The translations under genes were made by a program, and so were the position numbers. A stretch of 51,292 nucleotides of DNA from an uncultured Candidatus Poseidoniales archaeon (lineage in GTDB: Archaea > Thermoplasmatota > Poseidoniia > Poseidoniales > Thalassarchaeaceae), in contig CAXDMJ010000006.1 of NCBI GenBank assembly GCA_963990035.1, positions 1 through 51,292 on the forward strand. The letters run 5' to 3'. The notes under the pieces were generated by a model, which did no database searches, was not told the DNA's origin, and worked only from the letters and a program-made list of their open reading frames with translations. Positions 31,119 to 34,509 of this stretch are shown piece by piece; position 1 is the stretch's first letter, and every line of letters begins with the position of its first letter.

Positions 31119-31454
31119 TTGAGTGGTCGGAATCGTATGCTAAATATAATCACATCATTAATTGAAATTGTTTCTAGTAACAAAGAACTCACTAGTAAGA
31201 GAGTGAATTTAGAGGTTAATTATGTCTCGAATACGCTTGAATTAATGAGAGATGCAAGGAAGATTTCGAATGATGCGTATCTTGACTCGGGCTCGATTCA
31301 AGGAGGATTATCAGTAGTTTCAAGCCTATTAGAGCAAGATATTCCAAGTGAGGAAATAAGTTTACTCTTGGATACTCTTTTCCAACGAGCTGAAATCTTA
31401 AATTCTAGGTATCCTGAATTAAATAAATTAATTGAATCATATAGGGACAACTAA
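31119..31454 (+). CDS. Hypothetical protein
   Basis: 111 aa ORF with TTG start, 2 nt after the mce stop. Confidence 0.6.
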   Translation: MSGRNRMLNIITSLIEIVSSNKELTSKRVNLEVNYVSNTLELMRDARKISNDAYLDSGSIQGGLSVVSSLLEQDIPSEEISLLLDTLFQRAEILNSRYPELNKLIESYRDN

Positions 31455-31510: not shown

Positions 31511-31675
31511 ATGCCGAAAATAAGTCTGGATATACCTTCAGAACTATTAGAAGATCTAAAAAAACATGTAGGCGATGATAAAAAATTTATTTCATTAGCA
31601 GATGCTGTAAGAACTGCATGCAGAAAAATATTGGATCAATTAGATACAATAGACGAATTCCATGGTAGGAGATGA
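31511..31675 (+). CDS. CopG/ribbon-helix-helix transcriptional regulator (54 aa)
   Basis: MPKISLDIPSELLEDLKKHVGDDKKFISLADAVRTACRKILDQLDTIDEFHGRR; RHH pattern. Not in the ORF track. Confidence 0.85.
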   Translation: MPKISLDIPSELLEDLKKHVGDDKKFISLADAVRTACRKILDQLDTIDEFHGRR

Positions 31676-31679
31676 TGAA

Positions 31680-32270
31680 ATGATAAAGCAAATACCTAGT
31701 AAAGATGATGCGAAAAGGGCTATTGAAACCTTAGTTAGATATATTGAAAAAATAGATGGACCATTAAGAGAGGGACTTATAGATACACCTAAGAGAGTAG
31801 TGGAATCATATGAAGAGCTTTATCAAGGGTACAATATGGATGCTGATTCTCTTTTAGAATCTACTTTTAATGCAGAAGGATATGATGGCATTGTTCTACT
31901 CAAAGATATAGAATTTCATTCAACATGTGAACATCATATGTTACCCTTCACTGGTTCAGCACATGTTGCTTACATCCCCGTAGAAAATATCGTTGGTATT
32001 AGTAAACTAGCTAGGTTGGTAGAACTTCATTCACTAAGACTGCAGAATCAAGAAAGGATAACTAAGTCAATAGCGGACGATTTAGAGCGAGTATTGAATC
32101 CTTTAGGTTGTGCAGTCATCATTGAAGCCAAACATGGATGTATGCAATGTCGAGGCGTCAAAAAGCAGAACTCAGTAATGACTACAAGTTCTATGAAAGG
32201 AGTATTCTTTGAAAATTCACAAGCAAGAGTAGAATTACTTCAATTAATCAATAATCCAAGAAATAAATGA
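31680..32270 (+). CDS. folE: GTP cyclohydrolase I
   Basis: REGL.DTP.RV, CEHH.LPF, VGISKLAR, LQNQER and H.CM..RGV motifs. Confidence 0.96.
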   Translation: MIKQIPSKDDAKRAIETLVRYIEKIDGPLREGLIDTPKRVVESYEELYQGYNMDADSLLESTFNAEGYDGIVLLKDIEFHSTCEHHMLPFTGSAHVAYIPVENIVGISKLARLVELHSLRLQNQERITKSIADDLERVLNPLGCAVIIEAKHGCMQCRGVKKQNSVMTTSSMKGVFFENSQARVELLQLINNPRNK

Positions 32271-32279
32271 GGTCTGAAT

Positions 32280-32909
32280 ATGGTAATCCTCGGTCAAAAT
32301 ATGGATTTAGAAAAATTATACCCTATTGTAGAAATTTTTCATAGTGTACAAGGTGAAGGTTACCATAATGGAATACCATCGATTTTCATTCGATTTGGAG
32401 GTTGTAATCTTAGGTGCCCATGGTGCGACACTGATTTCGACGTTTGGACTGATATGAGTATTGGGGAAATAGTTAATGAGTTATCGAAATATGATTGTGA
32501 TAGAATTATTTTTACTGGTGGAGAGCCTGCTTTGCAAGATCTTGTTACTCTTTCTGCTTGTCTCAAACCTCTTGGATATTACTTAAGTATAGAAACAAAT
32601 GGAACAATTCATATCCCTGAGGATACTATTGATTGGATATGTGTTAGCCCAAAAGATCAGGAATATGCGGATCTAAAAATAAAGCAAACTACAGGGAATG
32701 AACTAAAGGTTGTATATTTAGGCCAGGATTTAGGTATGTACAGCGTATTAAAAGAAGGTTTTGAACATTTATTTCTCCAGCCACTTTATGATGAAGGGCA
32801 AAGTACTGAATGGAATGGAATGAGCTTTCACAGCACATTCGAAAAAGTAAGAAATAATCCTGAATGGAGATTATCTCTACAAACACATAAGTGGATGGGT
32901 GTAGAATGA
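32280..32909 (+). CDS. queE: 7-carboxy-7-deazaguanine synthase (radical SAM)
   Basis: EIF.SVQGEG, FIRF.GCNL.C.WCDT, TGGEP, IETNG, VSPK and LSLQTHK motifs. Confidence 0.95.
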   Translation: MVILGQNMDLEKLYPIVEIFHSVQGEGYHNGIPSIFIRFGGCNLRCPWCDTDFDVWTDMSIGEIVNELSKYDCDRIIFTGGEPALQDLVTLSACLKPLGYYLSIETNGTIHIPEDTIDWICVSPKDQEYADLKIKQTTGNELKVVYLGQDLGMYSVLKEGFEHLFLQPLYDEGQSTEWNGMSFHSTFEKVRNNPEWRLSLQTHKWMGVE

Positions 32910-34054
32910 AAAGAGCAGTTATGGCTTTGAGTGGAGGTATGGATTCTACAAGCCTCTTGATACACTTATTGTCTAAGGGGTACAAAGTTGATTGTATATC
33001 ATTTAATTATGGGCAAAAACATTTGATTGAAGTTGAAAAGGCTAAAGAGAATATATCTTATCTAAAGCATAATGGGTTTTTAGTTAATCATGAGATTGTA
33101 GATTTATCCTCGGCAATGTCAATATTTCATTCTGCTCTAACAAATCCAGAAATTATTGTACCAGAAGGGCACTATGAAGAAGAACAGATGAAATCTACTG
33201 TAGTCCCTAATAGAAACGCAATATTTTCTTCGATCATATATGGATACGCACTTTCTATAGTATCAAAGGAAGAAATGAACGTAATAATTGCTCTGGGAGT
33301 TCATAGTGGTGACCATGCAATATACCCTGATTGTCGCCCTGAGTTCTATGAAAGTCTGGAAGAATCATTTAGGATTGGTAACTGGGATTCTGAAAAAGTA
33401 AGTTTCCATCTCCCATACATAAATGGTGATAAAACAGAGATATTACGAGACGCAGAAAATTCATGTGAAAAACTTAATTTAAATTTCAATACTATTTTTG
33501 CTAATACAATCACCTCGTATAATCCTGATTCTAACGGTAGAAGTTCGGGGAGAACTGGATCAGATATTGAGAGGATTCTAGCATTTAGAGACGTAGGTAA
33601 AATTGATCCCATAGACTATGTTGACTCATGGGATGTTGTGCTTGCAAATGCAATAACTATTGAAGAGAAACATAAGGATAATTATTACAAAGATAATTTA
33701 ACTAATTTACAATATAATGTCACTAGAAGAAGTGCTACTGAGCGTCCTTTTACTGGTGAATCATGGGATGAGAAAAGAGATGGGCAATATACCTGTATTT
33801 GTTGTGGACATCTGCTATTCACTTCAGAAATGAAGTTTGATTCAGGTTGTGGTTGGCCTTCATTCCATTCAGAGCATAACGATGCTGGGATTAATCAAAT
33901 AGAAGATATGACACATGGAATGATCCGAATCGAAGTTAAATGTTCGAAATGTGACGCTCATTTAGGGCATATATTCAACGATGGACCGATCCAATTCGGA
34001 GGCGAGAGGTACTGCATTAATTCAGCATCAATGAATTTTGAGGAGAGAGAATAA
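32906..34054 (+). CDS. queC: Fusion of 7-cyano-7-deazaguanine synthase QueC and methionine-R-sulfoxide reductase MsrB
   Basis: N-terminal SGGMDS, YGQKH, VP.RN and YPDCR (QueC); C-terminal TERPF, CICC, KFDSGCGWPSF, CSKC.AHLGH and RYCINS (MsrB); single uninterrupted frame. Confidence 0.92.
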   Translation: MKRAVMALSGGMDSTSLLIHLLSKGYKVDCISFNYGQKHLIEVEKAKENISYLKHNGFLVNHEIVDLSSAMSIFHSALTNPEIIVPEGHYEEEQMKSTVVPNRNAIFSSIIYGYALSIVSKEEMNVIIALGVHSGDHAIYPDCRPEFYESLEESFRIGNWDSEKVSFHLPYINGDKTEILRDAENSCEKLNLNFNTIFANTITSYNPDSNGRSSGRTGSDIERILAFRDVGKIDPIDYVDSWDVVLANAITIEEKHKDNYYKDNLTNLQYNVTRRSATERPFTGESWDEKRDGQYTCICCGHLLFTSEMKFDSGCGWPSFHSEHNDAGINQIEDMTHGMIRIEVKCSKCDAHLGHIFNDGPIQFGGERYCINSASMNFEERE

Positions 34055-34509
34055 TGGTTACAACAATTAGAAGATTTGTAGAAACAGATACAGGGCATAG
34101 AGTGCCGAATCATAAAAGCAAATGTCGACATATGCATGGACATAGATATCGCTGGGAAGTAGAAATCGAGGGTGATGTAGTTATTGAAGAAGGTGTATCA
34201 GATGAAGGGATGTTGATGGATTTCTCTGATATATCTAAGATATTAGAGGAACATATTCACGATGTTGTTGATCACGCATTTATCGTATACAACCAAGACC
34301 ATGAGGCCTTAGAAGCTTTAGCAATTTTAGGAGACACACATCGAACATTTGTAGTTTCATTCATACCTACTGCTGAGAATTTGGCTAAATGGGCTTTCGA
34401 ACAGGTAGAACCTATGATAACATCAAAATATCATCAAAAATTAAGATTAGTTGCATTTCATGTCAGAGAAACTCCTAAATCATGGGCTAGTTGGAGAAAA
34501 GACAACTAG
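34054..34509 (+). CDS. queD: 6-carboxytetrahydropterin synthase
   Basis: GHR...H..KC..MHGH.Y, DH, PTAENLA and ETP motifs. Confidence 0.93.
   Translation: MVTTIRRFVETDTGHRVPNHKSKCRHMHGHRYRWEVEIEGDVVIEEGVSDEGMLMDFSDISKILEEHIHDVVDHAFIVYNQDHEALEALAILGDTHRTFVVSFIPTAENLAKWAFEQVEPMITSKYHQKLRLVAFHVRETPKSWASWRKDN

Follow-up and report, generated by a model that had tools for sequence, protein, structure and literature searches.

A QueC-MsrB fusion gene in the preQ0 operon of an uncultured Poseidoniales archaeon

Contig CAXDMJ010000006.1 of an uncultured Candidatus Poseidoniales archaeon (assembly GCA_963990035.1; 51,292 nucleotides, called the window below) carries an operon for 7-cyano-7-deazaguanine (preQ0), the precursor of archaeosine. 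Within this operon, a single open reading frame encodes both QueC, an enzyme of preQ0 synthesis, and MsrB, a methionine-R-sulfoxide reductase. The question raised by the locus is why an enzyme of tRNA modification and an enzyme that acts on oxidised protein should share one chain. Our answer is that the gene probably encodes a bifunctional protein formed by the merger of two overlapping operon neighbours, queC and msrB, and that its two halves work independently of each other.

The fused reading frame

The frame is open over 32891..34054 on the forward strand, and translation from the ATG at 32906 gives 382 residues, the same length as an identical database protein (P0001) that is present on 20 contigs. 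Pfam places QueC at residues 3–229 (1.9e-43) and SelR, the MsrB family, at residues 265–379 (8.4e-48), and finds no other family. The codons over approximately 33650–33720, read by eye, contain neither a stop nor an ATG, GTG or TTG in frame. The original prediction had described one frame for QueC followed by a complete MsrB, with a linker free of both stop codons and methionine; this description is borne out by the open frame, by Pfam and NCBIfam and by the identical database protein, and it extends to the alternative starts GTG and TTG, which are likewise missing.

Both Pfam domains are found in every one of the best 120 of 7996 database matches, at 73–100% identity. We note that the source records name these fused proteins after one half only, either MsrB or QueC (for example, ‘MsrB [Candidatus Poseidoniales archaeon]’).

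The stretch is nearly complete in 13 sequencing runs. The junction was checked on contigs from four runs belonging to four studies, one run being possibly the source of the window DNA and one being an RNA library. Contigs from all four studies cross positions 33600–33720, with no indels, joints or loose ends reported: X10 (the possible source) covers the whole stretch, X12 covers 32899–34045, X13 covers 33608–34300, and X15 (the RNA library) covers 33587–33768. The last of these is a weak hint of expression and no proof of transcription. A stop codon or frameshift at the junction, missed through an error of assembly or sequencing, was the artefact for which the original prediction proposed to look at these positions. 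It has practically no probability left, given the indel-free contigs, the 20 contigs with the identical protein, the shared architecture of the 120 best matches and the fused frame in 75 of 151 species genomes described below. The artefact is already refuted, and the fusion is a true single gene.

The operon has the order folE-queE-[queC::msrB]-queD, with all genes on the forward strand (Table 1). The queE stop overlaps the start of the fusion in ATGA at 32906–32909, and the fusion stop overlaps the start of queD in TAATG at 34052–34056; both overlaps were read from the window letters and are as originally described, and the surrounding preQ0 operon was recovered by the Pfam and NCBIfam matches of folE, queE and queD. 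The top NCBIfam matches of the queE product are QueE models, every one of them under its cut-off (TIGR04508 143 vs 240).

Table 1. Features of the preQ0 operon and of the fused gene, in window coordinates
Feature	Position	Strand	Basis
folE, GTP cyclohydrolase I	31662..32270	+	First gene of the preQ0 operon; Pfam GTP_cyclohydroI 1.7e-64; NCBIfam FolE subfamily NF006825 227.8 vs cut-off 174
queE, radical-SAM 7-carboxy-7-deazaguanine synthase	32280..32909	+	Pfam Radical_SAM 5.2e-10
QueC-MsrB fusion, 382 residues and stop, type I junction	32906..34054	+	Open frame; Pfam and NCBIfam; identical database protein P0001; junction-crossing contigs
QueC catalytic part, residues 1–241	32906..33628	+	PF06508 at residues 3–229; motifs SGGMDS, YGQKHLIE, VPNRN, YPDC, Y205
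Former zinc-binding segment of QueC, residues 203–227	33512..33586	+	Alignment to Cys-bearing relatives and PDB 2pg3
Connector, residues 242–264: QueC C-terminal helix continuing into MsrB N-terminal helix	33629..33697	+	AlphaFold2 predicted local distance difference test (pLDDT) 90–95; codons; junction alignment
MsrB (SelR) domain, residues 265–379	33698..34042	+	Pfam SelR; TIGR00357; PDB match 6sym
queD, 6-carboxytetrahydropterin synthase	34054..34509	+	Pfam PTPS 9e-29; TIGR03367 QueD 85.3, slightly under the cut-off of 89.25

The two halves compared with known enzymes

The conservation of residues was followed in 72 operons fetched from the order, a non-random set consisting of the 12 best hits, all of them fused, and 60 operons picked to cover genera and states. 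Of this set, 27 are fused, 35 are split (folE-queE-queC-msrB-queD) and 10 have no msrB (folE-queE-queC-queD).

The QueC half passes PF06508 (148.8 bits against a gathering cut-off of 22) and falls below the cut-off of the NCBIfam QueC equivalog TIGR00364 (137.4 against 150.3). A 2026 preprint on the QueC family gives the catalytic signature as SGGxDS, YxQxHxxE, VPxRN, YPDC and an essential tyrosine in the zinc region, and describes canonical QueC as zinc-dependent, with the motif C(x)8CxxCxxC (10.64898/2026.04.08.717055). The catalytic signature is present in the window protein, with SGGMDS at residues 9–14, YGQKHLIE at 35–42, VPNRN at 100–104, YPDC at 140–143 and an invariant Y205. All 72 QueCs of the order share identical SGGMDS, VPNRN and YPDC and keep the YGQKHxxE pattern. 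The C(x)8CxxCxxC motif is missing: alignments to cysteine-bearing relatives and to PDB 2pg3 put S204, S214, T217 and D220 in the places of the four zinc cysteines, and there is no cysteine in this segment in any of the 72, with or without msrB.

The window QueC resembles the canonical enzyme in its fold family, its motifs (including the essential tyrosine beside the first zinc ligand) and its operon partners folE, queE and queD, and differs from it by having Ser, Ser, Thr and Asp where the zinc cysteines would be, by methionine instead of glutamine in the P-loop, by an extra C-terminal helix, by the low TIGR00364 score and by the attached MsrB. Because the zinc motif is missing and the equivalog cut-off is not reached, we regard the QueC half as a variant without the zinc motif that most probably functions as QueC, and not as a canonical member. 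It is the only clear QueC in the window's genome. A weak further PF06508 match (E 1.2e-4), at G000:C31:11557-11739 within an open frame of 317 residues, is probably another PP-loop ATPase. TgtA is encoded elsewhere in the genome (TIGR00432 413, cut-off 350), so preQ0 made here would have its expected user, at tRNA position 15.

The QueC of this order is just 27–41% identical to the QueCs of the rest of the phylum, and all nine of these that were fetched keep the four cysteines. Its identity to bacterial-titled QueCs is 56–63% in the species-genome scan. Twenty-one of 22 bacterial-titled loci, from Entotheonella, Verrucomicrobiota, Planctomycetota and Neomarinimicrobiota, hold the cysteine-less type; the 22nd, from a Pseudomonadota metagenome-assembled genome, has the zinc cysteines. 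A search of the flanks of these bacterial loci for msrB found it in 0 of 22. Judged by sequence, the window QueC is a member of a cysteine-less clade common to marine bacteria and this archaeal order, which suggests, as the simplest reading, a transfer of the QueC gene or of the whole operon between the two domains. Literature searches, whose reach did not extend to the supplements of the preprint (neighbourhood tables, logos), found no paper on a zinc-free QueC or on such a clade.

Two further candidates were considered and rejected. A phage origin of this QueC type is disfavoured by the best phage match (Flavobacterium phage), which at only 39.8% identity is farther away than the bacterial QueCs. 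Apparent QueC fusions in other Thermoplasmatota, with frames of 370–500 residues, proved at the nine fetched loci to be ordinary QueCs of ~220–240 residues, each with four cysteines; the extra length comes from read-through upstream, in GC-rich DNA. As a separate observation, four QueC-like representatives of 631–734 residues (P0123, P0126, P0138 and P0159) each match the query over two distinct stretches, of which the first takes in approximately residues 2–140, and may be QueCs broken up by a large insertion, for example an intein.

On every feature that could be tested, the other half belongs to the MsrB family. It scores 161.6 against PF01641 (cut-off 24.9) and passes the NCBIfam equivalog domain TIGR00357 (169.5, cut-off 113.05), and solved MsrBs align with it end to end (best PDB match 6sym, 5.5e-41; 3cez, 1.3e-38). 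The zinc site is made up of the CxxC pairs C297/C300 and C346/C349, the resolving cysteine is C315 (GCGWPSF) and the catalytic cysteine is C370 (RYCINS). All of these had been claimed in the original prediction and are present, and they are conserved in 62 of the 62 MsrBs extracted from the operons of the order, fused and split. The HLGH histidines are present as well (HLGHIF). The fusion is the sole SelR (PF01641) match in the window's genome (1.41 Mb, 85% complete), in which MsrA (a PMSR match) is unlinked, on another contig (C17). Stand-alone MsrBs such as 6sym and 3cez thus match over their full length and share the zinc pairs and both functional cysteines; the window MsrB differs from them in having no start of its own and in an N-terminal helix that continues the last helix of QueC.

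Two known kinds of fusion come to mind, and neither fits the window protein. MsrA/MsrB and MsrB/MsrA proteins (NF010625, NF004042; PDB 3e0m, 7e43) also join MsrB to another enzyme in one chain, but the partner here is QueC: only the MsrB part matches those models, at 126.5 against a cut-off of 522 and 137.9 against 330, and Pfam gives QueC and SelR only on the fused chain, with no MsrA (PMSR) domain. The GAT-QueC of Crenarchaeota joins QueC to a glutamine amidotransferase that acts in the same pathway. It shares with the window protein the combination of QueC and a second catalytic domain, but SelR has no known role in this pathway. The original prediction knew of no described link between QueC and MsrB, and our literature searches, to which the supplements of the 2026 QueC-family preprint were closed, likewise found no paper on the fusion. 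The architecture is already in public databases and, as far as these searches reach, has apparently not been discussed in print.

The original prediction had also suggested that the MsrB fold may have been co-opted for another role in deazaguanine synthesis. Such a role might be to replace the lost zinc domain of QueC structurally or to reduce an intermediate of the pathway. It is true that a Cys4 zinc site persists in the attached MsrB and is lost from QueC, and that the connector between them is short and helical. All residues for Met-R-sulfoxide reduction are nevertheless conserved, the score exceeds the cut-off of the equivalog domain TIGR00357, and there is no other MsrB in the genome. 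Moreover, cysteine-less QueC occurs without MsrB in 10 operons of the order and in 21 bacterial loci. The loss of zinc is therefore independent of MsrB, and replacement of the QueC zinc site by the MsrB zinc knuckle is rejected. The QueC of the msrB-less operons carries the same motifs, and PF01641 was absent from five of five msrB-less genomes searched for it (88–98% complete). Since lineages without MsrB keep the same QueC, co-option in any form is argued against; we consider it very improbable, and this part of the prediction is not supported.

Distribution, junctions and neighbouring genes

Profile searches covered 151 genomes of Poseidoniales, and the counts were made by hand from two cross-checked tables. 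Exactly one MsrB above the Pfam cut-off was found in 123 of the 151. In 75 genomes it lies in an open frame of 336–438 residues that also holds QueC; in 47 it is a separate gene, in a frame of 108–231 residues; and in one it is cut by a contig end. The remaining 28 genomes have no MsrB above the cut-off, a group that takes in every sampled member of six genera. Forty-five of the 47 separate genes follow queC directly on the same strand, and msrB is thus either joined to queC or its immediate downstream neighbour in 120 of the 123 genomes that have it. From these gene positions, the association of queC and msrB is old and order-wide. For the other two separate genes (in G075 and G115) the listing shows no QueC match beside msrB. 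In G115 an N-terminal part of QueC (C6:57273-57680) and msrB (C3:116825-117172) are on different contigs, as could result from an assembly break or a rearranged locus.

The split pairs have the genes, gene order and residues of the fusion, and differ from it in having two open reading frames and an MsrB with its own N-terminal leader of 10–25 residues, which is absent from the fusion. The two genes mostly have a 4-nucleotide overlap of the ATGA type or a gap of a few nucleotides, and in 4 of the 35 split operons they share a frame and are parted by a single stop. Fused and split operons are found alike within single genera (g1 and g4). The comparison with relatives, which the original prediction had proposed as a check on the fusion, thus has two sides: the fusion is real and widespread, but the split form is common, even among members of one genus. 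Three of the split operons (L016, L017 and L021, from genomes G061, G127 and G001) have gaps of ~0.5–1.3 kb in which none of the five query proteins matches, located between folE and queE in the first two and between queE and queC in L021; extra inserted genes are possible at these sites.

Among the best 150 of 16619 representatives clustered at 50% identity, there is one full-length fused cluster (P0121), besides a few short entries whose matched stretch crosses the junction. The QueC-MsrB architecture looks confined to this order.

The fused proteins have two types of junction. In type I (~382 residues), to which the window protein belongs, the QueC tail is kept and is joined to the N-terminal helix of MsrB. 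Type II is without 14 junction residues, so that the last QueC helix passes directly into MsrB. Each of the two large families of the order has both types. For the window protein, an AlphaFold2 model made from 37 aligned sequences has a mean pLDDT of 90.8 and a predicted template modelling score (pTM) of 0.81, with helix 242–264 and then helix 267–274 bridging the domains. The type II model has a pLDDT of 86.7, a pTM of 0.83 and a single helix, 241–259, across the junction. A complex prediction between the separate QueC part (1–252) and MsrB part (258–382) gave a score of 0.00 with its controls not folded, and counts neither way on binding. Since the two junctions differ by 14 residues, no single geometry between the domains would be required.

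We note in passing that in most of the type II fusions (among L036–L039, L046, L047, L049 and L075) the motif that follows HLGH, FxDGP....GG, has become FHEAR/FHEYT-GP, with a deletion of four residues. The extra cysteine at position 299 is also replaced in these proteins, whereas the catalytic and zinc cysteines are unchanged.

Upstream of the operon in the window are a methylmalonyl-CoA mutase gene, an adjoining gene of glyoxalase fold, which is possibly methylmalonyl-CoA epimerase, and an open frame of 111 residues with no Pfam family (31119–31454, forward strand) between the glyoxalase-fold gene and folE. Downstream, on the opposite strand, are a SpoU methylase gene and the genes for ribosomal proteins S17e, L31e and S19e.

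Merger and coupling as possible explanations

In this order msrB lies between queC and queD, usually with a 4-nucleotide ATGA overlap with the queC stop or a gap of a few nucleotides, and we propose that two such neighbours, coupled in translation, merged. Because msrB overlaps or nearly abuts queC, an indel of one base or the loss of the stop codon would be enough to join the two frames, a route of origin that can be seen in the relatives. In the resulting protein the QueC half, a variant without the zinc site, would use ATP and ammonia to convert 7-carboxy-7-deazaguanine to preQ0, which TgtA would then insert at G15 of tRNA. The MsrB half would be the cell's only MsrB, reducing protein Met-R-sulfoxide via Cys370 and being recycled via Cys315 and thioredoxin. 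The fusion would fix co-expression and a 1:1 dosage, without linking the two chemistries. QueC would not need MsrB, since the junction lengths differ, lineages without msrB exist, and the bacterial relatives have no msrB nearby.

Several points weigh against this proposal. The independent activity of the two halves is deduced from residues and context, and to our knowledge no QueC without a zinc site is known to be active. The continuous helix, together with pTM values of 0.81 and 0.83, hints at a predicted arrangement of the domains that is defined and not floppy. On the sequence survey, the link between queC and msrB is more persistent than a random neighbourhood: where this could be determined, msrB almost never leaves queC. 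The remaining points come from trees, which were quick IQ-TREE searches in which the deep branches of the QueC tree are poorly resolved. With 38 representatives as the outgroup, all 62 MsrBs of the order fall in a single clade (99% support), and the type II MsrBs form a clade of their own (98% support); the fusion seems to have arisen at least twice. In approximately unbiased (AU) tests, the p-values of which are weakened because the fusion types were named after the junction alignment had been seen, FolE+QueE+QueD reject a single clade of type I operons (log-likelihood difference 251.6, p-AU 0.0008), whereas QueC+MsrB with the junction columns removed do not reject a single type I clade, which is not thereby shown to exist (log-likelihood difference 6.0, p-AU 0.30). 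These results fit one origin of type I and a later exchange of the fused gene between lineages, and such an exchange could reflect selection.

Several of these points can also be read as signs that the coupling itself was selected. A sole MsrB tethered to QueC would keep QueC or the preQ0 pathway working in surface seawater, where conditions are oxidative and light is strong; a possible route would be the reduction of oxidised Met12, in the ATP loop SGGMDS, or of Met95, by which the supply of archaeosine would become tied to redox state. Consistent with this are the adjacency of queC and msrB across the order (120 of 123), the two distinct junctions with the repeated fusion that they imply, the compatibility of the type I fused gene with one origin that its flanking genes reject, and the helical connector and pTM values of the models. 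M12 and M95 do not vary among the fused proteins, and SGGMDS is shared by 72 of 72 relatives, its methionine standing where the two solved QueCs have Q. However, the methionine-bearing QueC is kept in lineages without any MsrB, the bacterial relatives of this QueC have msrB nearby in 0 of 22 cases, and the 14-residue difference between the junctions means that the geometry is not conserved. In addition, the sole MsrB must serve the whole proteome too, and the sensitivity of the QueC methionines to oxidation is a supposition. We therefore think selected coupling rather unlikely, and with it the coupling of deazaguanine synthesis to oxidative-stress repair that the original prediction had suggested.

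A more far-reaching account, to which we attach still less credence, would make the fusion adaptive and have it arise at least twice, with type I moving as a cassette between the two families and the sole MsrB, tethered to a zinc-free, methionine-bearing QueC, sustaining synthesis of the archaeosine precursor under photo-oxidative stress. The zinc-free QueC clade would itself represent a zinc-sparing enzyme that bacteria (marine Planctomycetota, Verrucomicrobiota and Entotheonella) and archaea have exchanged in surface waters poor in zinc. The merger of two neighbouring genes, with each half working independently, is the explanation that we continue to favour.

Poseidoniales (Marine Group II), which are uncultured, rank with the most abundant archaea of surface seawater, and the queC-msrB pair, fused or split, is a lineage-wide feature of these archaea. 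With two fused kinds, split forms and msrB-less forms in one lineage, the order provides a natural test case for the argument that ‘Rosetta-stone’ fusions imply function. Database names that refer to one half hide the other from metabolic reconstructions, be it the archaeosine pathway or the sole MsrB. The loss of the zinc site from an otherwise intact QueC bears on the description of QueC as zinc-dependent, as given in the family preprint (10.64898/2026.04.08.717055). Finally, the invariant Met12 in the ATP loop would be a concrete target for examining whether the tethered MsrB protects its partner.

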